Source: Naegleria gruberi (taxonomy: Eukaryota). From it: DNA of 64,000 nucleotides. Positions 78 through 59,100 of this stretch are shown in pieces (positions within the stretch are counted from its first letter, which is position 1; every line of letters starts with the position of its first letter). The translations under genes and the position numbers were made by a program. The notes beneath the pieces were generated by a model, which saw only the letters and a list, made by a program, of their open reading frames with translations, did no database searches and had not been told where the DNA came from. Location of the stretch: assembly GCA_000004985.1 (NCBI GenBank), contig GG738858.1. One strand, 5' to 3'.

Positions 78-2195
78 ATGGAAAAACACACAACACAACT
101 TTCACAAAAAGAAGAAGAGGAAACAAATATGAACTTGTGGCAACAAGATGATCAATTTCCGAATGACATTATTTATGAAATTATGTCCTTTCTTGATGAT
201 TTTACATTTGTTGTCATGAATTGTGCATTAGTATCCAAACAGTGGTTCAATGTTATTTTATTAACATGTAACCATCTTACTTTGAATGGTAAATATGGTG
301 TTGAAATGGGTGGCCAATTTTTACAGAATATTGCAACTCTTAATGTTTGTGCCACAAGTGATACTTGCAAAAAATTAATCTTGATGAAATCATTAACTGA
401 ACTAATTATTAGATGTGATGAACAAGACGCTAAATACATAGGTGGATTGAAACAATTAACGAGGCTTACTATTTATTCCAGTCATATTCGTGATATTGGT
501 AAAATTAGTGAATTGAAACAATTGACCTATCTCAATGTTCCTGCGAATGGTATTTGGTGTTATACAACTAAACAGGTAAAAGAATTTAAACAATTGACCA
601 CTCTTATTATTGATCAAAATCAAGTGGGTAGTGAAGGATGTAAATATATTAGTGAATTGAAACAATTGACCTCTCTTTCTATTGATGAAAATTTTATTTA
701 TGATGAAGGAGTAGAGTATTTAAGTGAATTAGCACAATTAACATATCTTAATATTTCCAACAATGGGGTTGGTAGTGAAGGATGTAAATATGTAGGCAAA
801 ATGAAACGATTGACCTCTCTTGGTTTTTATAACAATCGTATTGGTAAGGAAGGAGCTAAATACATTAGTACATTGAATCAATTGAAACAACTTGATATTT
901 CTCGAACTAATATTGGTGATAAAGGACTTGAACATATTGGTCAATTATCACAATTGACAAGTCTTGATTTATATTGCAATAAGATTGGTAATGGAGGAGC
1001 TAAATATTTAAGTGAATTGAAACAATTAACCTATCTTAATATTTCTGAGAATCACATTGGCAATGAAGGAATTAAATATATTGGTGAATTGAAACAATTA
1101 GTCAATCTAATAATTAATAACAATAGGATTGGTAATGATGGAGTTAAATATATTGGAGAATTAAAACAATTAACCTATCTTAATATTTCTGAGAATCGCA
1201 TTGGCAATGAAGGAATTAAATATATTGGTGACTTAAAACAATTAACCAATATTATTATTTCTCGTAATTGGATTGGTAGTGAAGGAGCTAAATATATTGG
1301 TAAATTGTCACAATTGACAAGTCTTGGACTTTCTAGTAATAATATTGATAACGAAGGAGCTAAATATTTGAGTGAATTGAAAGAATTGAGCTTTCTTAAT
1401 ATTGAGAGAAATAAGATTCGTGATGAAGGAGCAAAATATATAAGTGAATTAAAGGAATTGATCTATCTTTATATCAGTAACAATAAGATTCGTAATGAAG
1501 GAGCTAAATACATAAGTGAATTGAAACAAGTAACTTACCTTGATATTGGCAACAATTATATTGGTGATGAAGGAATAAAATACATAAGTGAAATGAAACA
1601 ATTAACGGATCTTAAAAAATACCAATATAATGAAGAAGAGTACAATGAAATTGAAGAGGAGTATAATGAAGAAGATTACTATTACAATGAGGAGGAGGAG
1701 GAGTATAATGAAAATGAAGAAGAACATAATGAGAATGAGGAGGAGTACACTAACGAAGAAGAATATATTGAAAATGAGGAGGAGTACAATGAAAACGAAG
1801 AAGAATACACTGACAATGAAGAAGAACATAATGAGAATGAGGAGGAGTGCACTGACAATGAAGAAGAGCACAATGAGAAGGAGGAGGAGTACACTAACAA
1901 TGAAGATTACTATGACAATGAGGAGGAGTATACTGAAAATGAAGAAGAGCACTCTGAAAATGAAGAGGAGTACAATGACAATGAGTATTTGAAAATGAAG
2001 ATCACAACGAAAACGAAGAATTCACTGTCAATGAGGAGGTGGAGTATATGGAAAATGAAGGAGAATATATTGAAAATGAGGAGGAGTGCACTGACAATAA
2101 AGAAGTGCACAATGAAAATGAGGAGGAGTGAAATGAAAAAGACTGGAATTGTTTTTGTTAACCAATTAGATGAAGATATGAATCAGACATTGTAG
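78..2195 (+). CDS. F-box-like N-terminus + RNI-type leucine-rich-repeat protein with acidic NEEEEY-repeat C-terminal tail
   Basis: ATG at 78. The N-terminus FPNDIIYEIMSFLDDFTFVVMNCALVSKQWFNVIL is F-box-like. About 16 tandem 24-aa LRRs of ribonuclease-inhibitor type follow (for example ISENRIGNEGIKYIGELKQLTYLN). A long GAA/GAG-rich tail encodes NEEEEYN repeats from about 1615. The frame changes near 1985, so the listed ORF end at 2195 is probably artefactual; the +2 frame gives NEDHNENEEF... and stops at 2129-2131. Paralogs lie at 23421..25266 and 49747..51009. Confidence 0.75.
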   Translation: MEKHTTQLSQKEEEETNMNLWQQDDQFPNDIIYEIMSFLDDFTFVVMNCALVSKQWFNVILLTCNHLTLNGKYGVEMGGQFLQNIATLNVCATSDTCKKLILMKSLTELIIRCDEQDAKYIGGLKQLTRLTIYSSHIRDIGKISELKQLTYLNVPANGIWCYTTKQVKEFKQLTTLIIDQNQVGSEGCKYISELKQLTSLSIDENFIYDEGVEYLSELAQLTYLNISNNGVGSEGCKYVGKMKRLTSLGFYNNRIGKEGAKYISTLNQLKQLDISRTNIGDKGLEHIGQLSQLTSLDLYCNKIGNGGAKYLSELKQLTYLNISENHIGNEGIKYIGELKQLVNLIINNNRIGNDGVKYIGELKQLTYLNISENRIGNEGIKYIGDLKQLTNIIISRNWIGSEGAKYIGKLSQLTSLGLSSNNIDNEGAKYLSELKELSFLNIERNKIRDEGAKYISELKELIYLYISNNKIRNEGAKYISELKQVTYLDIGNNYIGDEGIKYISEMKQLTDLKKYQYNEEEYNEIEEEYNEEDYYYNEEEEEYNENEEEHNENEEEYTNEEEYIENEEEYNENEEEYTDNEEEHNENEEECTDNEEEHNEKEEEYTNNEDYYDNEEEYTENEEEHSENEEEYNDNEYLKMKITTKTKNSLSMRRWSIWKMKENILKMRRSALTIKKCTMKMRRSEMKKTGIVFVNQLDEDMNQTL
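1615..2131 (+). repeat. coding GAA/GAG-rich imperfect tandem repeat (acidic NEEEEY(N/T) units)
   Basis: Repeated aatgaagaagag / gaggaggagtac units are seen directly. They generate the antisense and alternative-frame ORFs at 1602..1952, 1630..1992, 1682..1900 and 1910..2110. Confidence 0.7.
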
Positions 2196-23420: not shown

Positions 23421-25266
23421 ATGGACAAACACACAACACGAACACAACTTTCACAAAAAGAAGAAGAAACAAATAATTATAAATTTCCGAATGACATTAT
23501 TTATGAAATTATGTCCTTCCTTGATGATTTTAAATTTATTGTCATGAATTGTGCATTAGTGTCCAAACAGTGGTTCAATGTTATTTTATCAACATGTAAT
23601 CATCTTAATTTAAATTGTAAACGTGGTGTTGAAATGGGTGGCCAGTTTTTACAGAATATTGCAATTCTTGATGTTTGTGCCACGAATGATACTTGCAAAA
23701 AATTAATCTCGATGAAATCATTAACTGAACTAATAATTAAATGTGATGATGAAGGATCAGCTAAATTCATAAGCGAATTGAAACAATTAACGAGGCTTAC
23801 TATTGATGCCAGTCATATTCGTGATGAGGGAGTTAGATATATTAGTGAATTGAAACAATTGGCCTACCTTAGTGTTCATAGCAATGATATTTCTGATGAT
23901 GGAGTTAAATATCTAAGAGAATTGAAACAATTGACCACTCTTATTATTTTTAGCAATCGTGTTGGTAGTGAAGGATGTAAATGTATTAGTGAATTGAAAC
24001 AATTGACCTCTCTTTGTATTGATGATAATCATATTAATGATGAAGGAGCAAAGTATTTAAGTGAATTAGCACAATTAACATATCTTGATATTTCAAGCAA
24101 TGGGCTTGGTAATGAAGGAACTAAATACATTAGCACATTGAATCAATTGGAAAAACTTAATATTTCCCAAAATTATATTGGTGATGAAGGACTCGAATAT
24201 TTTGGTAAATTGTCACAATTGACAAGTCTTGAACTTTCATAGCAATGATATTGCTGATGATGGAGTTAAATATCTAAGAGAATTGAAACAATTGACCACT
24301 CTTATTATTTTTAGCAATCGTGTTGGTAGTGAAGGATGTAAATGTATTAGTGAATTGAAACAATTGACCTCTCTTTGTATTGATGATAATCATATTAATG
24401 ATGAAGGAGCAAAGTATTTAAGTGAATTAGCACAATTAACATATCTTGATATTTCAAGCAATGGGCTTGGTAATGAAGGAACTAAATACATTAGCACATT
24501 GAATCAATTGGAAAAACTTAATATTTCCCAAAATTATATTGGTGATGAAGGACTCGAATATTTTGGTAAATTGTCACAATTGACAAGTCTTGAACTTTCT
24601 AACAATAAGATTGGTACTGAAGGAGCTAAATATTTAAGTGAATTGAAACAATTAACCCAACTTGATATTGAATATAATAAGATTGGTGATAAGGGGGCAA
24701 TGTATTTTGGAGAATTGAAACAATTGGTCAATCTAATAATTAATAACAATAGGATTGGTAATGATGGAGTTAAATATATTGGTGAATTAAAACAATTAAT
24801 CTATCTTGATATTTCTGAGAATCGCATTGGCAATGAAGGAATTAAATATATTGGTGAATTGAAACAATTAACCGATGTTAATATTTCTGAGAATCGCATT
24901 GGTAATGAAGGAGCTAAATATATTGGTCAATTATCACAATTGACAAGTCTTTATTTATCTAACAATAATATTGGTAATGAAGGAGCTAAATATATAAGTG
25001 AATTGAAGGAATTGATCTATCTTTATATGAATAACAATAAGATTCGTAATGAGGGAGCTAAATACATAAGTGAAATGAAACAAGTAACCCAACTTGATAT
25101 TGGCAACAATTATATTGGCGAAGAAGGAATAAAATACATAAGTGAAATGAAACAATTAATACATCTTGAAAAATACCAATATAATGAAGAAATGTACAAT
25201 GAAAATGAAGAGGAGTATAATGAAAATGAAGAAGAATACACTGACAATGAGGAGGAGGAGTACTAA
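23421..25266 (+). CDS. F-box-like/RNI-type LRR protein (paralog of 78..2195) disrupted by an internal 361-bp tandem duplication; possible pseudogene or assembly artefact
   Basis: The ATG at 23421 gives MDKHTTRTQLSQKEEETNNYKFPNDIIYEIMSFLDDFKFIVMNCALVSKQWFNVIL. The reading frame hits TAG at 24240-24242, exactly at the duplication junction, and continues in the +1 frame (ORF 24229..25266) through more LRRs. It ends with an acidic YNENEEEY tail like the paralog. Confidence 0.6.
23877..24598 (+). repeat. near-perfect direct tandem duplication, 2 x 361 bp
   Basis: Copy 1 is about 23877..24237 and copy 2 about 24238..24598. They are identical except for one substitution (atttctgat vs attgctgat). 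A unit of 361 is not a multiple of 3, so the duplication creates the in-frame stop. Confidence 0.85.
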
Positions 25267-25457
25267 GACTCAATAAACCTTATAATCATTCCAATAAAAC
25301 TTTATTCATTTCTTGGAATAAATAAAGAGAGAATATAAATTTGAGCCATTTTTCAAAAACAATAATAAGGCATCTTGGCAACAATCAACTTTATTGGTCG
25401 AGTTGATGCTTACTAAATAAATTTAAATAAATTTAAATTTTCAAAAAAAATTAAAGA

Positions 25458-26958
25458 ATGAAAGGTAGGAATGAAAAACAATCGGATCATGGAGGAAATA
25501 TTGGTGGCTCTCTGGGAAGTGACTCTGATGAAGATGTTCCATTTCTAAAACATTTAAAGCCAAAGGCAATAACGAAATCTTCATCCATGCATCGGAAAAA
25601 CAAGTATTTGACAAAGCCTCCTAATTTTGCACAATTAGCAACAAAATATCCCTTCTTTGCACAATAGTACGTTTAAAACTAAGTTTAACTTTTTAAATAA
25701 TTATTTAATTAAATATTAATTATTTAATTATTAAAGTGTTGATTCGGAGGGAAAAGTTGATTGGTCCAATGCTGAATCAATGGTAAATTTAACTAAAGTT
25801 CTATTAAAAGATGATTATCAACTTGAATGGAATTTACCTCTCAATCATTTATGTCCTCCAGTTACGAATCGAGTTAATTATATTCATTGGATTAATGATT
25901 TATTAGAAATTGGAGGAAATACTCAATTGGATTCTCAGAAAATTGTTGGAATTGATGTTGGAACAGGTGCCAGTTGCATTTATCCATTGTTGGGATTGAG
26001 AATTTATGGATGGAAATTTATTGCAAGTGATATTTGTGAGGAAAGTTTGGAATTTGCAAAGAAAAATGTGGAAATGAATGAATTTCAGAATGATATTTGT
26101 CTTGTTAAGGTTGATAAAGAATCGGGAGATATTTTGAAAAGCTTGATTCCATCCCTAAAGGAAAAATATGGAAATTCAAATGTGGAATGGGTGAATTCAT
26201 TTGATTCTGTTCACTTTACAATGTGTAATCCTCCATTCTTTGATGTGGATGAAGAGATTAAGAGAAATCCTAATAATGATTGTCGAGGAAATGAAAATGA
26301 AATGATTACTGAAGGTGGAGAGGAAACATTTGTCAAGAATATGATGAACGATAGTTTTTACTTGATCAAGAAGAAGGAAACTTTTGAAATATTCAAGAAT
26401 TGTTGGTTCACTTCAATGCTTGGTAAAAAGAAAACTCTACAATCATTGAAAGAATACGTCAACCAACTCAATGAAACAATCAAGCTCTATGAGGATCAAT
26501 CTATTCAAAATATGCAATTGACCTTTCACATAACTGAATTTATTCAAGGACAAACTACTAGATGGGGTTTTGCTTGGAAATTCGAAACTCCAAAACAAAT
26601 CCAAGCCAAACTCAGCCAGAGCCAAAAGGTCAGCTCAATAGCTGTCCAGAAGGACATGTTCCAAAACATTCACAAAGGTTACAACCATGCAGGTCTATTA
26701 TTGACCTCCCTCCATAATTGTCTCAAGAAACATTCGAATCTAATTTCCATCTCAAAAGTTGATACTTTCAAAGCAATGATTCGAGGATTTCTTGCCAAAG
26801 ATAAGAAACAAGAATTTGAAATTACCATCATGCAAACTCAACCCAAAAAGTTTACAGTCAAAACAAGTTACAAGGGAGAATCCAGTGTTGAGGAATCGTT
26901 GGCTTTTTCCCAAATGTATGAAATTTTGAGTAGAGAAATATTTAGCAAATGTGTTTAA
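25458..26958 (+). CDS. METTL16-like (methyltransferase-10 domain) RNA N6-adenosine methyltransferase, 2 exons
   Basis: join(25458..25666,25737..26958). Exon 1 ends ...SSSMHRKNKYLTKPPNFAQLATKYPFFAQ|Y and exon 2 starts VDSEGKVDW...; the 70-nt intron has a GTACGT donor and a TTAAAG acceptor. The conserved motifs RVNYIHWINDLL, GIDVGTGASCIYPLLG, CNPPFF and ITEGGEETFV closely match human METTL16. An alternative start is at the internal ATG at 25587. Confidence 0.8.
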
Positions 26959-48555: not shown

Positions 48556-49692
48556 ATGGGACAATCACAACCGAGCTACCCGCCACCACTTGCAACAAAA
48601 TGTTCCGAAAATGAAAGATTGGCTGTGATGCAAAAATTGGGAAATTTTGAGATGGCTCCAATTATGGAATTTAAATACTATTTTAATAGGAAATACAAGA
48701 ATAATTATCAACATTCGGATGAGAGTTTAGTTTTCAATGATGAGAATTGTTCGATATTTGAGAGGGAATTACCTGAAGAAGTGTTTATTCACATTTTGAA
48801 ATTTTTAAATCATCGAGAATTAATCAAAATGAGAAGAGTTTGTACAAACTATGAAAGTTATTGGATTCAAAATTCGAAAGTGTGGAATGTAAGATCGTTC
48901 GAAACTGAAAAGGATGAACCAAACATGTTGTTCAAACCAGTTTTGAATTCGCCCATTGAATCCATCTCTTTTTATTACAAACACTTTCTTCCAACCATTG
49001 TAAATTCATTTTACAGAGGCAACACAATTTCATATAGAGAAAGAATCAAAACTATTCTTTTAGGAAGTGAACGATGTGGAAAATCTGAATTAATGAAATT
49101 GGTTATTAACAATTATCAAGATTTTAATCCATTACTGGAATACTCTCCAACTGATGCCCATCTTTACACACCATTAGAAATTATTCCATTCAAGACCTCT
49201 TCTGAAAGAGGAGATTTGTTATTACAATTTTGGGATAGTTCAGGTAAAGAAAAGAGAATTCCCTTTCTCAAACCATTATTAAGGGAGACGAGAATTTATA
49301 CATTTTGTTTTGATTTGAGCGATGTGAAATCTTTCTTTGAAATGAAAAGTAGAATTGAAACTTTTCAAGTGGAATATTTAAATTCTAATTCATTGAATGA
49401 GGAATTAAAAGAAAGTGGAGCTTGCATGTTGGTGATTGGAATGAAGAGAGATTTGGAGAGGAAAGTGAGTAAACTTGAAATTACTAAATATTTGGAAGAA
49501 TTGAGCAAAGTTAAAGATGGAATCTCAATTAAGAGTTTAAGAATTCAATATTTCGAGTTGAGTAGCAAACAGGATTCAAAGAAAGTATTGGAATTTCCAT
49601 TTATTTATGGGTTGACCATGATTGAAGAGCATATTCCACCAGAAGAGACATTAGAAATGATGGCAGCACACTTTATGAAACCTGCAAAATAA
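48556..49692 (+). CDS. F-box domain fused to a divergent Ras-superfamily (Rab-like) GTPase domain; N-myristoylation-type N-terminus
   Basis: 378-aa ORF with N-terminus MGQSQPS. The F-box is LPEEVFIHILKFLNHRELIKMRRVCTNYESYWIQNSKVW. The GTPase motifs are G1 ILLGSERCGKSELM, G3 WDSSGKE, G4-like VIGMKRDL and G5-like ELSSKQ. Confidence 0.6.
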   Translation: MGQSQPSYPPPLATKCSENERLAVMQKLGNFEMAPIMEFKYYFNRKYKNNYQHSDESLVFNDENCSIFERELPEEVFIHILKFLNHRELIKMRRVCTNYESYWIQNSKVWNVRSFETEKDEPNMLFKPVLNSPIESISFYYKHFLPTIVNSFYRGNTISYRERIKTILLGSERCGKSELMKLVINNYQDFNPLLEYSPTDAHLYTPLEIIPFKTSSERGDLLLQFWDSSGKEKRIPFLKPLLRETRIYTFCFDLSDVKSFFEMKSRIETFQVEYLNSNSLNEELKESGACMLVIGMKRDLERKVSKLEITKYLEELSKVKDGISIKSLRIQYFELSSKQDSKKVLEFPFIYGLTMIEEHIPPEETLEMMAAHFMKPAK

Positions 49693-49746: not shown

Positions 49747-51009
49747 TTGTCAAAAAAAATGAATCCACATCAAAAACCGTCTACACTATCACCTCATAAT
49801 CAAGGAATACTTGTTGATGATATATTTTCCAATGACATTTGTTTTGAAATTTTATCATTTCTTGATTCTTGGTCAATTTTAAATTGTTCTTTAATTTCAA
49901 AACAATTTCGTCAAGTAATCAAGGAGGGAATAAAACTTTCTATTAATTTCCGACAAGAAGTTAACAGTGGAGGATTAGAAAAGCTTGGAAATAGTTCATT
50001 TATCGATAATATAATTTCATTGAAATTTGGAATAATTCCAAATCAATATAAGAAATTCTTTGATTGTTTGAGATTGATGCATCAATTGACCGATCTTTCA
50101 TTATCTAATTTTATATTTGCTACATATGCTGGTAAAAACAGTGAAATTACTGTTGAGCTAGCCAAATGCATCTGTCAATTGAAAAATTTAAAAAAACTTG
50201 ACGTTAGTTATAATTATCATCTTGAGAATGAAGTTGTTGAATTGATAAGTGAATTGAGAGAATTGAGAGAACTTAACATTAGATACTGTGATATTGGAGT
50301 AGAAGAGGTAAAATATCTCACTAAATTGGATAAATTGCATTCTCTGGATATTGGTATTAATCAAATATATGCAGACGGAGCTAAATTATTAAGTACAATG
50401 AAAAGTTTAACAAAGCTTGATGTGGCTGAGTGCGAAATTGGTGATGAGGGATGCCAGTCAATTACAGAGCTTTATCAATTGACTGATCTCAATATAAATG
50501 GTGATGGTATTGGTGTTGGGGGAGCTAACTGTATTGGTCAGATGAGGAATTTAAAAAGTCTCGATATTAGCAATAATTTCTTTGGAAATTATGGAGCAAA
50601 ATCAATAAGTGAGCTATCTCAATTAGAAATTCTTAATGTTTCATATAGTGACATTGATGAAGTGGGAGTTTATCAGTTACGCAAATTGAAAAATTTAACA
50701 TCTCTTTCCATTCATCATAATGAGATAACTGATGAAGGAACTAAATATATAGTAGAATTGGACCAATTAACTCATCTAGATATTAGCAACAATCAAATTG
50801 AAACAGAAGGAGCAAAATCTATTAGTGAAATGAGTCAATTAACCTCATTGAATATTAGTTCTAATATTATAGGTGACGAGGGAGCTCAATATATCAGTCA
50901 TTTAAAAAAACTAACATCACTAAATGTTAGCAAATGTAGAGTGAGTGAAGAAGGAGTTGAATCTATCAGAAAACAATTGAAACACTTGAAAACGCTTGAG
51001 GTAGAATAA
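49747..51009 (+). CDS. F-box-like/RNI-type LRR protein, divergent third paralog
   Basis: 420-aa ORF with an N-terminal F-box-like region, FSNDICFEILSFLDSWSILNCSLISKQFRQVI, followed by about 12 RNI-type LRRs (for example ISNNQIETEGAKSISEMSQLTSLN). It has no acidic tail. Confidence 0.7.
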   Translation: MSKKMNPHQKPSTLSPHNQGILVDDIFSNDICFEILSFLDSWSILNCSLISKQFRQVIKEGIKLSINFRQEVNSGGLEKLGNSSFIDNIISLKFGIIPNQYKKFFDCLRLMHQLTDLSLSNFIFATYAGKNSEITVELAKCICQLKNLKKLDVSYNYHLENEVVELISELRELRELNIRYCDIGVEEVKYLTKLDKLHSLDIGINQIYADGAKLLSTMKSLTKLDVAECEIGDEGCQSITELYQLTDLNINGDGIGVGGANCIGQMRNLKSLDISNNFFGNYGAKSISELSQLEILNVSYSDIDEVGVYQLRKLKNLTSLSIHHNEITDEGTKYIVELDQLTHLDISNNQIETEGAKSISEMSQLTSLNISSNIIGDEGAQYISHLKKLTSLNVSKCRVSEEGVESIRKQLKHLKTLEVE

Positions 51010-53195: not shown

Positions 53196-56100
53196 TTAAT
53201 TAACTAGTCCTATCGGAACATAGCAAACCAAACCATAAATACCTCCATCAGGAGTAGTAGTAGCCCACCAACCATATGTTGGATAAGATCCCATAAAGTA
53301 AGCATAGGTAATACTATCACCAGATGCTGGATAATAACTACTGTACCAATCCTTATAGACAATGGTACTTCCATCGGACCAAGTTGTGAAGGAGCCTTGG
53401 GAAATTTCATGTCCCTTAGTACCTAAGAAGAAGGCATTGGTTTCATTCTTTGGAAGGAGATTGTTGGCTAAGAATGTCTTTTCTGTGGCACTTTGAATTT
53501 GGACCAATGAAGCGTTTGGATGGAAATACTTGCACAAACTACTCATTGATTCAACGGCATAATAGTTTTGAAGTTTGGTAAAGTAATAACATCTTCCCAA
53601 TGATGTACTACAGCTCATCTTTCTATACCATGGATAATCAACCATGTTGACCTTTGGAGGTAGAGTTGAAGGAGCAGTAATGATACCTGATGGACCTGTA
53701 ATTGTTCCTTGAGAATATTGAGAACCACCAGCAAGGCCAAATTTGATAATACCTTCTGGAATGTCTCCTGCAATCTTGAGTGTGTAAATCTTGTAGGAAC
53801 CTGGTGCAATAGTGTATGAGCTAGGCAATGACAAGTAGGTGAAACCAGTGAGTCCAGTAATTTGATCAGCACCAATGTAAACAGGGAAGCTTGGTGAATA
53901 ATCATGGAAGGCATCTTGGTTGTATCCTGCTTGTAATTCGAGAGTGAATCTAGTAAGTGCAGGTGATCCAGTAGCAACACTAATATTGTATGTGAAAACA
54001 GTAACTGGAGAGGAAGCGTTCAAGAATGTGGCAGTAGAAGAGGTCTTACCCAAATATTTAACAGAGTAACCACTGCTAGCTAATGGAACGAGTACATTGG
54101 TCTTGGATGTGTCAACAATATTACATGAGTTATCAATAATGGTTTGGTAAATGTTACTCAAATCGTTCCAATTTACCAAGACAAGATTATTTTGATCATA
54201 GTTCATCTTTTGTACTTGAATTTGACCATAACTATCCGTTACAGCAGAGCCTATTCCGATAGCAAGCTGTCTCCAATTCCAAACTGAGCCATAGAGTGAC
54301 ATTTCAGCATTATTAGAGCCACCAATTGACCAAGAGTTAATATCAACTGATCTAACAGTGGCATCAGAACATGGATTACAACGAGATCTATCATCATACC
54401 ACGAGCAAACAGTACAATCTGCGCCTGGGAAGCGAGGGCTCTTACAATAGGATGGGGAAACACCATAGTTTCCAGGATTTGATGAATAGGTTGATCTACA
54501 GCTACCACAAGAGCATGGGTCATTTGAGAGACCATCAGTAATGTGAATCAATAACTTTTGAGAAATTGACTTTCTACCAGAGGCCAACATCATATTAACT
54601 GCAGTATTAATACCTGAAATTGAGTTGGTACCAGATTGAATTTGGGCCATATTCTTGATGGCAGTTAAAACACTAGATTGACTTGTACCAGACTTCAAAT
54701 CCAAGTGAGTTGTAATAGTTGAGGCAAATTGAATAATACCAATGTTTGTTCCAGTTGGAGAGATGTTTGATCCAAAGCCTGTTGTCAAATTGGAAGCAAA
54801 GTTCTTCATGTTAACAAAGTTATCAGCTGTAATACTTCCAGAACCGTCAATAACAAATATGATATCCAAGTTAAGACCGCATTGACACTTGGTGTATTGA
54901 ACTGAGACAACAGCTGATGCTGAGGTACCATCTTGATCTGATTGGATACTGTAAACAAACTTTTGAGTATTACAACTTCCAGTAACTGGATAAACTCTGA
55001 TAATTCTATTGTTGGCAGGATCGGCTGGGTTGAGGATGGCTGGAGTGCCTGATGTACAATATGAGGAATCACCTGATGGACAAGAAATTCCAGTGAAAGT
55101 GAATGTACCACCAAGAGAATCATAGTCATTGCTCAACAAACTTGATACAGAGATATCAATATAGGTATTGAATTGTGTTGATACAAAGTCATTGACAGCA
55201 ACAGGAGGAGAAGCAAGAGCTGAAATTCCAACTTGAACATTCTTAGTAATTGGATTTCTTGCATCAGAATCAGAAACAGCTAAAACAAAGTTACAACTTC
55301 CAAGGAATGTTGCTACTCTCAAAAACTTGACTTGATTGCTGGCAATTGTCAAGGATTGAAGAACGGTGCTATTACAAGTTCCAACATCTGCAATACTCTT
55401 CAAAACTAGAGTGTCTGCAGTGTCGGCATCCTTTGAAGATGAGAGAGAAATATAATCAAATGAAATATAATTATTACTAGCTCTAGAAATTGAATAGACA
55501 TAAGTGTAAGCATTCAAGGTTGGAGCTTGATTAGGTTGAGCAATAATAATCTTACAAATGGCAGTTTGTCCAGCAGTGTTTGTCAAAGAATAGGAAGCAT
55601 AACAATCACTATTTGATGATGAGGTACTTGCTGGAGTGTATGTCAATTTACCAGTAGAGGATGAGATGGAACCAACACCATTAAGAGTAGCAGTGTTAGT
55701 GATAGCCATTGTGACTGGTTCAGAACCAACCTTTGCTGTTAAACTTGTCTTTAAAGCATCTTCAAATTGAGTAGCAGCAGAATTCTTTGTAGTGGAAATT
55801 GTGTAATCAAGACATCCGAAAGAATTACCAGTGATTGTAACAGTGTAAGTGTAGGTTGAAGTTAATTGACCATCAGTCAAGGTGAAAGAGAATTGCAAAG
55901 TTCCCAAATAAGTAGTAGCATAAGTAAGCTTTACAGATCCATCAGAGTTCAACAAGACAGAGGCACCAGTGTTTTGAGTAATCATACTAACACTTGAAAC
56001 AGTAACTGTATCACCATCAGCATCACTTGCACCTGTCAATAGATCAGTGAAAGTATAAGTTGGATTGGAATAACTTCTTTCAATGGTGGTAGTCTTTGCA

Positions 56101-59100
56101 CTTCCAGTTGGAGGTGTATTTCTAATGACTACAGACATGGTAGCATAAGTTGCAACTTGAGCACCATCATAACAACTAAACTTAATGGAGTCTGTAACAT
56201 ATCGTGTTCCATTAGAAAGAGTGGTTGTGTAAGAAATTGAGGAGCTTGGTGTGTAAACAAGAGATCCAGTAGTGTAATCCGAAACAGTTGTTGTACCATA
56301 TGAACCTTGACCAACTCCAAACAAAGACAATGAATCGCTATCAGCATCATAACAGTATTGAGAAACAACATTTGTCAAAGACAAAGTGTTCTTCCAACCA
56401 ATAGTTTTAGAGAATGAAGTAGCTTGAGGAGCAGTATTGGTAAAAACAAGGTTAACAGTGGCAATATTAGAGGTGGCAATTTGATCAGTAATGGTGTATT
56501 GGAATGAATCAGTACCTGGACCATTAATGAAGGTATTCATATAGAAAACAGTTACCAAATCACTTTGTAAAACAAGGGCGGTATTACCTGTTGGCAATTG
56601 AGCACTACCAAAGTTAACATTATTCAAATTCAAAGAATTAGAACCCAAACTCATGATAACACCATACATGTTAACAACATTGAAGTTAAGTTGACCATAG
56701 GTAAGGACATGTCCATAGAATGTACCTTGAATACCTGCAGCGCCAACAATCCAGAAAACGTTCAAGTAACTAGCACCATTCTTGAAACTCCAACTAAAGT
56801 TAGCATTCAAATTTGTGGTGGCAACAAAGATAAAAAGACCACTTCCACTCAATTCAATTTTACCATTTCCATTGAGACCTTGAGAGAAACAATATACACC
56901 TGGAGTAAATGACAAAACACCTGAAGATGGGAAGTTTTGATCAAGAGAGGCAACACAAGACTTTTGTGAAAGATATTGGTAGAGATTTGAGGCAGATGTA
57001 ACAACAGATGAGTAGGCAGCGTTGTTGACACTCAAAGTACCAGTTGGTTTAAGAGCTTGAGCAGTGAAACCAGCAGTGGCAACGCTTCCAGGAACAACCA
57101 AATTGGCAAAGTTATTACAAATGGTTGAACCCTTAGAAATAACAATGTAATCTCCGATACCATTGTATGAACTGACTAAGCTTGATGGATATAACTTGTT
57201 AATATAAATATAATCACCATCAACATCATAATCGTTCAAAACAGGTTTCAAATACAAGGTATTATTGGTCCAGTGTTGAGTGAATGTATTATCAACAGCA
57301 ACAGGAGGAGTATTAGTAATGGTAATGGTAACAGTATTGGTAACACTTGAGAAACCATCAGTTACAACATAGGTGAATGAAGTAGTGAACCCAGCAGTTA
57401 GAGGAACTGGTGTGTACTTGACAAAAGTGGAATTAACAGAAGCAACAGCACCAGTATTTGGTTGAGTGAATGAAACAATGGTCAATGAATCACCATCAGC
57501 ATCAGTAACTCCAGACATCAAATCAATACTGAGGCCACTTTGAACCTTAGCCCAGTGACGACTGAATGTTAATGGAGTTGCTGTAGGAGCGCTATTGGAA
57601 ATAGTAACAAAGATTCCCTTTGATGCAGAAACTCCCATTCCATCAGTTACAGTATAGTTGAAGAATTGTGATGCAGAGTTTCCATTAGAATTGGTGAATG
57701 TGAATGATTTCTTGTCACCACTCAAAGCAACAGTACCTGCACTTGGATTAGTGAATGATGAAATAACAAGATAGTCTCCATCCTCAGTATCAGCATCAGT
57801 TGGCTTGAGAGAATCAGCTCTACCAATAACTGGAATAGAAATTGAGGAAGTGTGACCAGATACAACAATATCTTTAGCAACTGGAAGATTGTTATAGATA
57901 ACAATGCTGAATGTTGCACTTGAAGTGGACCACCCATCAGTGAATGAAACAGTAACGGAATCAGTACCAGTGTAAGCACTATTGACCTTATAGTTAATGG
58001 TGTTTCCTGAACCAAGAGAAGCAACACCAACCAGTGTCTTTGTGACAGCAGTTAAGGTAACAGCATCACCATCAGCATCCTTAAGATAGGAAGAAAGATC
58101 AATAACAGTATTACTCAAAACAGTTCTCCAGTGATATTTGAAAGCTGCAGTAGTATTGGCTGTTGGAACACTATTCAAAATTGTAATGGAAACAGTACCA
58201 GTGACTGTATCTCTTCCATCAGTGATAATATAACTGATTGGGTTGATACTACCAACAAAACCACTGGAAGGAGTGAATTTTACATTTCCAGAGCAAGTGA
58301 CACTACCTTGAGCTGCAGTAACAGATGAAGAGCATGATTGTAATGATAATGAATCTCCATTAGCATCTGAAGAAGCAGAAACAACTTCAAATGTTAAACC
58401 ATTCTTAGCTGAAGACCAAGAACCGACAAATGATTGTGAATTTGTTGTTGGAGCAGTATTGGTAACAGTAACAGTAACAGTTGATGTTGAAGTGGCAATC
58501 TCATCAGTGATTGTATAGTATACAGTATCTGTAGATGGAGCAGTTCTTGGATAGTAAGTAATGTTGGTTGAGGTAAATGTTGGTGACAAAGGAGCTAATG
58601 AACCATAAACATTAGTAACTCTCAATGGATCAGACTCAGCATCAGTATCGTTAGCAACAACATTCAAAGTGTAAGAAGCAACGTTCCAGTGAGTAGTGAG
58701 CTTATCTGGAACAGCTACTGGGGCAGTATTGTAAACAATCAAGTTGACAGTTGTGGTAACTTGACCGTTTGAAGCACCATCAGTAACAATGTACTTGAAT
58801 GAAAGTGAACCCACAAAGTTTCCAGAACCAAGGATTTTGACAGACTTGCTATCCAAAACAGTTACGGAACCAACACTTGGTTGAGAAGCAATTGAAACCA
58901 AACTCAATGAGTCGCCATCAGTATCATAATCAGCTGGAGCATAATTTAAGATATCAATTTCAATACCTGCCTTGAAAGTTCTCCATGGAACTGAAATAGT
59001 CTTGGTTTGAGAAGTTGGAGCGTTGTTTACAACAGTTACAGAGATTGAACTAGTTGAGCTCTTCATAGAGTCAGAAACTCTGTAGTTAGCAGTGTAAACA

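Follow-up and report, generated by a model that had tools for sequence, protein, structure and literature searches.

The locus described here, part of a 64-kb stretch of DNA from Naegleria gruberi (hereafter the window), holds a gene of the F-box/LRR type whose reading frame is interrupted where a part of its own sequence appears a second time. This raises the question of whether the gene was broken by a recent duplication in the organism, was broken only in the assembly, or is still expressed across the lesion. Direct comparison of the two copies showed that each is 361 nt long, the first at 23877..24237 (equivalently 23875..24235) and the second at 24238..24598 (equivalently 24236..24596), both on the plus strand. 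They match at 360 of 361 positions and differ solely at 23892, a T, versus 24253, a G, where the codon reads TCT (Ser) in copy 1 and GCT (Ala) in copy 2; in copy 2 this mismatch sits 15 nt from the junction. The match at a lag of 361 nt is contiguous, so that the copies lie head to tail with no spacer, and it spans 364 nt (23875..24238, one mismatch), corresponding to the unit plus a 3-nt TTC at its boundaries. This TTC forms the junction microhomology at 24236..24238 and is present again at 23875-23877 and 24597-24599, while the junction-specific string at 24225-24255 reads AGTCTTGAACTTTCATAGCAATGATATTGCT. Over the same span the identity was 0.997 at a lag of 361, 0.30 at lags of 360 and 362, and 0.57 at a lag of 72, and the 361-nt repeat is thus far above chance and above the background periodicity of the LRRs. 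Tandem Repeats Finder likewise reported a period of 361 (2.2 copies, score 1475), in addition to a 72-nt array of 19.2 copies with 66% matches. The original prediction, made from the sequence by eye, had described near-identical 361-bp tandem copies with one base difference at 23877-24598; this description is borne out, and its coordinates are right to within the 3-nt ambiguity introduced by TTC.

As assembled, the gene extends on the plus strand from the first in-frame ATG at 23421 to 25266, where a TAA closes the downstream frame, with the frameshift inside it. The upstream frame (23421..24242; 273 codons) runs from this ATG, the ORF as listed mechanically beginning at GTG 23385, takes in the F-box and LRR units 1-7, and goes five residues into unit 8 before it reaches a premature TAG at 24240..24242. 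The F-box motif, FPNDIIYEIMSFLDDFKFIVMNCALVSKQWFNVI, is encoded at 23484..23600 (residues 34-72 of the 285-aa ORF) and was assigned to PF00646 with a marginal score of 22.1 bits against a cut-off of 20.5; PF12937 gave 21.6 bits, under its cut-off of 24.3. The LRR array, at 23721..25161, has a period of 72 nt or 24 residues and holds 20 units' worth of DNA as assembled, 15 units in single-copy form. Pfam LRR_6 matches were obtained in both ORFs (E=1.6e-20 and 1.6e-53). The downstream frame (24223..25266), which is +1 relative to the start and open from 24223, carries the repeated LRR 3-7, LRR 8-15 and an acidic tail, with no further lesions. It has no in-frame ATG before about 24655 and is probably untranslated. 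The Pfam matches to F-box and LRR_6 agree with the earlier call of an F-box/LRR gene, and the ORFs listed with it, 23385..24242 and 24229..25266, both exist as stated. The TAG is also found where it had been placed and for the reason that had been given: the unit length is 5x72+1, that is, five 72-nt LRR units (LRR 3-7) plus 1 nt, and because this shifts the frame, copy 2 is read one base out and translation from ATG 23421 ends at 24240-24242.

Deletion of one 361-nt copy, whichever of the two is removed, yields an intact ORF of 494 aa from ATG 23421 to TAA 25266, in which the F-box is followed by 15 LRRs in perfect 24-residue register and by an acidic NENEEEY tail. The frame that leads from the F-box into the full LRR array is not continuous as assembled, being broken at 24240-24242, and comes back only when one copy is removed. 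As a reference for the ancestral single-copy architecture we used paralog A (78..2195, plus strand), an intact gene of the same window with an F-box, about 17 LRRs and an acidic tail. Its 705-aa product is collinear with the 494-aa reconstruction over the full length, at 79% identity in aligned columns, and the sole gaps in the LRR region are two clean indels of 24 residues, one unit each. The five-LRR block is present once in paralog A, where the DNA of the unit finds a single 80% match, and the F-box motif is nearly invariant. From this comparison we infer that the single-copy architecture is the ancestral one. Paralog A could not be used to polarise the T/G mismatch between the copies, the stretch in question being too diverged to align reliably (HSNDISDDG versus PANGIWCYT). 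The other LRR units within the gene are only 47-85% alike in pairwise comparison at the DNA level, which makes the 99.7% pair much the most recent event of the array.

The acidic tail of paralog A (1960..2135) has a peculiarity of its own. Its NENEEEY repeat changes frame near 1985, from where the ORF runs on as a basic 'KMKITTKTKNSLSMRRW...' tail and the acidic repeat continues in another frame until a TGA stops it at about 2130. The family thus has a further disrupted frame here, be it genuine or the product of a base-call error. An F-box is also found in paralog B (49747..51009), a further F-box/LRR gene, directly upstream of which an adjoining ORF (48556..49692) combines an F-box with a Ras/Roc-like small GTPase domain.

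Neither the interrupted gene nor paralog A was found in a search of 5.8 billion proteins, in which the best matches were 39-61% identical and all came from N. gruberi; it seems that the public N. gruberi proteins include no model for either gene. An exact 38-nt search of JGI metagenome contigs gave no match, and a search of the literature on Naegleria F-box/LRR families returned nothing specific. The closest solved structures were LRR ectodomains and F-box/LRR GALA proteins (9j7j_A, E=4e-40; 4xa9_A). The arrangement, in which a solenoid of 24-residue LRRs comes after an F-box at the N-terminus, is shared with the FBXL-type SCF receptors and with the bacterial GALA effectors, and on the basis of this domain architecture we infer a role as substrate receptor of an SCF ubiquitin ligase. 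In contrast to these known proteins, the gene described here belongs to a lineage-specific N. gruberi family, encodes an acidic NENEEEY tail and is frameshifted, and its binding of Skp1 is putative.

The neighbourhood of the gene was compared with that in relatives. In N. gruberi the flippase ATPase gene is separated by about 5.5 kb (19893..25457) from a METTL16-type RNA methyltransferase gene, identified by Pfam in ORF 25780..26958, which is 100% identical to a partial N. gruberi protein. The public model of this methyltransferase ('partial', 306 aa) covers 68% of the ORF, and the Pfam match of the ORF sets in only at position 54 of the profile. An intron seems to divide the gene, with ORF 25458..25667 matching a 77-aa ORF (contig L001, 8027..8260) just upstream of the methyltransferase gene of a relative. 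In N. lovaniensis (L004) and in the Naegleria contigs L001/L002 and L003, the flippase is followed by the methyltransferase within about 1 kb. A Tim10 gene lies in this gap in L004 and L001, with no Tim10 call in L003. The Tim10 gene of Willaertia magna (L005) is directly upstream of the methyltransferase, and no flippase is nearby. Tim10 was not detected within the N. gruberi window. The 5.5-kb segment is absent from the syntenic site of the relatives, and contains a DUF4116 gene (19963..21636, minus strand), three ORFs without assignment (21779..23073, minus strand) and the F-box/LRR gene itself. Since no F-box/LRR gene is present at the syntenic site in L001/L002, L003, N. lovaniensis or W. 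magna, these relatives have no positional ortholog. The comparison with orthologous loci in related species that had been proposed with the original prediction therefore finds no counterpart to compare at any of the four sites. Further along the window, on the minus strand, a single ORF of 3589 aa occupies 53196..63965, where the GC content is slightly raised (0.37-0.385).

Given the geometry of the repeat, we evaluated how it may have arisen. The left breakpoint falls in unit 3, between CTTAGTGTTC and ATAGC, and the right in unit 8, between CTTGAACTTTC and TAACA. These are near-equivalent positions of two units that are 71% identical, offset by 1 nt, and the only sequence common to them is TTC. 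In a scan of the single-copy gene, a random 361-nt segment had a boundary microhomology of at least 3 nt with a probability of 0.05, a figure that rose to 0.09 when all lengths of 100-600 nt were considered, and the 3-nt microhomology is thus only weakly non-random (5-9%). If the breakpoints are arbitrary, the prior probability that the length equals a multiple of 72, give or take 1 nt, is about 3/72 (about 4%). In-register identity in tracts of 19-26 nt is available at other places of the array, and the event made no use of it. In-register unequal crossing-over between LRR units was considered and rejected, because the best homology was left unused and 361 is not a multiple of 72; the identity of only 0.30 at a lag of 360 and the mere 3 nt shared at the boundaries point the same way. 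The likely origin is instead a microhomology-primed template switch, replication slippage or end-joining. The suggestion that the repeat arose by slippage among the 72-nt LRR units is consequently retained in part: the breakpoints do occupy near-equivalent positions of units 3 and 8, but the event is 1 nt out of register and used only TTC despite the identities of up to 26 nt on offer.

Tandem duplications flanked by microhomology are documented and common; many of them shift the frame, and they revert frequently since their copies are identical (PMC8639346; bioRxiv 10.64898/2026.02.28.708716). The repeat described here resembles the microhomology-mediated tandem duplications (MTDs) of Schizosaccharomyces pombe ssp1 in being head to tail, in its short identical bounds, in shifting the frame and in its near-identical copies. 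The ssp1 alleles, however, are 55-92 bp long with 5-8 bp of microhomology (PMC8639346), whereas the present repeat is 361 bp long with 3 bp that are weakly above chance, and with a microhomology of 3 nt its assignment to the MTD class is a weak one. A second point of comparison is provided by the duplication of blocks of LRRs, as in plant NLR/R genes, in paralog A and in the N. gruberi kinase-DUF4116-LRR protein P0002. In P0002, residues ~640-810 are 92% identical at a lag of 96 residues, which is a recent in-frame duplication of a four-LRR block; multi-unit duplication is thus active in the LRR genes of this genome. The 361-nt event likewise comprises a whole number of units (five) to within 1 nt. 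It differs in being 1 nt out of register, and for that reason destroys the array instead of extending it.

These data allow us to weigh a real event against an error of assembly. We consider it probable that this is a real and very recent head-to-tail duplication of 361 bp in a lineage-specific N. gruberi F-box/LRR gene, because the duplication lies inside gap-free sequence and because a novel junction is required. The alternative is that the second copy was made by the assembler, for example by leaving an overlap unmerged, by taking in a chimeric clone or by setting the versions of two haplotypes one after the other, and that the organism carries a single-copy, intact 494-aa gene. Several observations are in keeping with such an artefact. 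The gene is repetitive and the copies are almost identical, and their lone difference, close to the junction, could be an allelic SNP or a base-calling mistake such as may fall at the end of a read; the single-copy form is a perfect ORF that matches paralog A; N. gruberi is reportedly heterozygous (PMC9928731); and the frame break in the tail of paralog A could hint at base-level assembly errors. The lesion-free state of the downstream frame fits an artefact and extreme youth equally well. Against this, the window contains no Ns and the duplication lies within contiguous sequence, which rules out that an overlap went unmerged at a scaffold gap. The usual fault of an assembler is to fuse near-identical tandem copies into one, not to generate a second; the novel junction sequence has to occur in reads, and the other LRR units, at most 85% alike, are too different to mislead an overlapper. 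Arbitrary contig ends would, in addition, be unlikely to give both a length near 5x72 (about 4%) and a 3-nt microhomology (about 5%). On balance an artefact is unlikely, though it is the most serious competitor of the real duplication.

If the duplication is real, its consequences can be proposed from the reading frames. A microhomology-type event would have duplicated LRR units 3-7 plus one base, and with the resulting frame shift, translation from ATG 23421 would meet the TAG at 24240-24242. The predicted product is 273 aa long and would consist of the F-box, seven LRRs and five residues of unit 8, leaving the remaining ~1 kb, which encodes eight LRRs and the acidic tail, presumably untranslated. 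The allele is then a young pseudogene or a truncation allele, and is possibly confined to one haplotype. The duplication had been described beforehand as very recent and pseudogenising. That reading is the favoured one, and the intact single-copy ORF and paralog A, which has the block once, agree with it; 'pseudogenising' is too strong a word for a truncation that retains the F-box and seven LRRs, and the product is not necessarily null.

The near identity of the copies also suggests, by analogy with fission yeast, where such duplications revert at a rate of around 1e-4, that the intact gene could be regained exactly through recombination or slippage between them. A more far-reaching reading is that the duplication is real, heterozygous or subclonal, and lets one SCF substrate receptor be switched on and off (or between long and short forms) in a rapidly reversible way, with the reversibility under selection. 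In a clonally growing, polyploid amoeba the frameshift would give the form with the F-box and seven LRRs, and recombination would return the form with 15 LRRs. We regard a selected switch of this kind as very improbable.

The gene might alternatively be functional as assembled if the frameshift were removed by splicing, either of the whole of copy 2 or of a shorter segment of length 3k+1 across the TAG. There are 377 GT...AG pairs of length 3k+1 that span the TAG and keep the frame open, a number of the kind expected by chance in AT-rich coding sequence. A 361-nt GT-AG intron is not possible, as AGGT is absent from 23871..24605, and neither GTAAG nor GTATG occurs anywhere in 23421..25266. By comparison, the three introns delimited in the window (two in the flippase ATPase gene and one in a CLC channel gene) are T-rich, measure 44-70 nt and all have GTAAGT at the 5' end. 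The candidate interval is moreover ordinary LRR coding sequence, and the shortest candidates, such as 24205..24265, would leave a malformed LRR. The possibility raised earlier that copy 2 is spliced out as an intron is thus contradicted by the splice motifs of the gene and of its neighbours, and we give intron rescue in any form scant credence.

The two frames overlap by 17 nt (24223..24239), and programmed +1 ribosomal frameshifting within this overlap would produce a full-length protein of ~614 aa with 20 LRRs. We regard this as extremely improbable: the overlap does contain CUU-U before the stop (CUU UCA UAG), superficially like the CUU-UGA of the bacterial prfB +1 site, but the codon after CUU is the sense codon UCA, neither a stop nor a rare codon, inspection of 24223..24242 revealed none of the known eukaryotic +1 motifs (Ty1 CUU-AGG-C, antizyme UCC-UGA-U and Euplotes AAA-UAR), the site is the accidental junction of a duplication that looks days old, and paralog A has no equivalent.

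The favoured reading, a real duplication, adds one more case to a well-known kind of event, in a gene family that is repetitive and expanded. It matters little beyond annotation and makes no open question testable. For annotation, its value is in marking a locus of the N. gruberi reference at which a gene of the lineage-specific F-box/LRR family has either been broken lately or been assembled wrongly. A real duplication would make the locus a snapshot of LRR-array turnover, in which the block duplication that lengthens other arrays in frame, as in P0002 and at the indels of paralog A, landed one base off register and truncated the gene.
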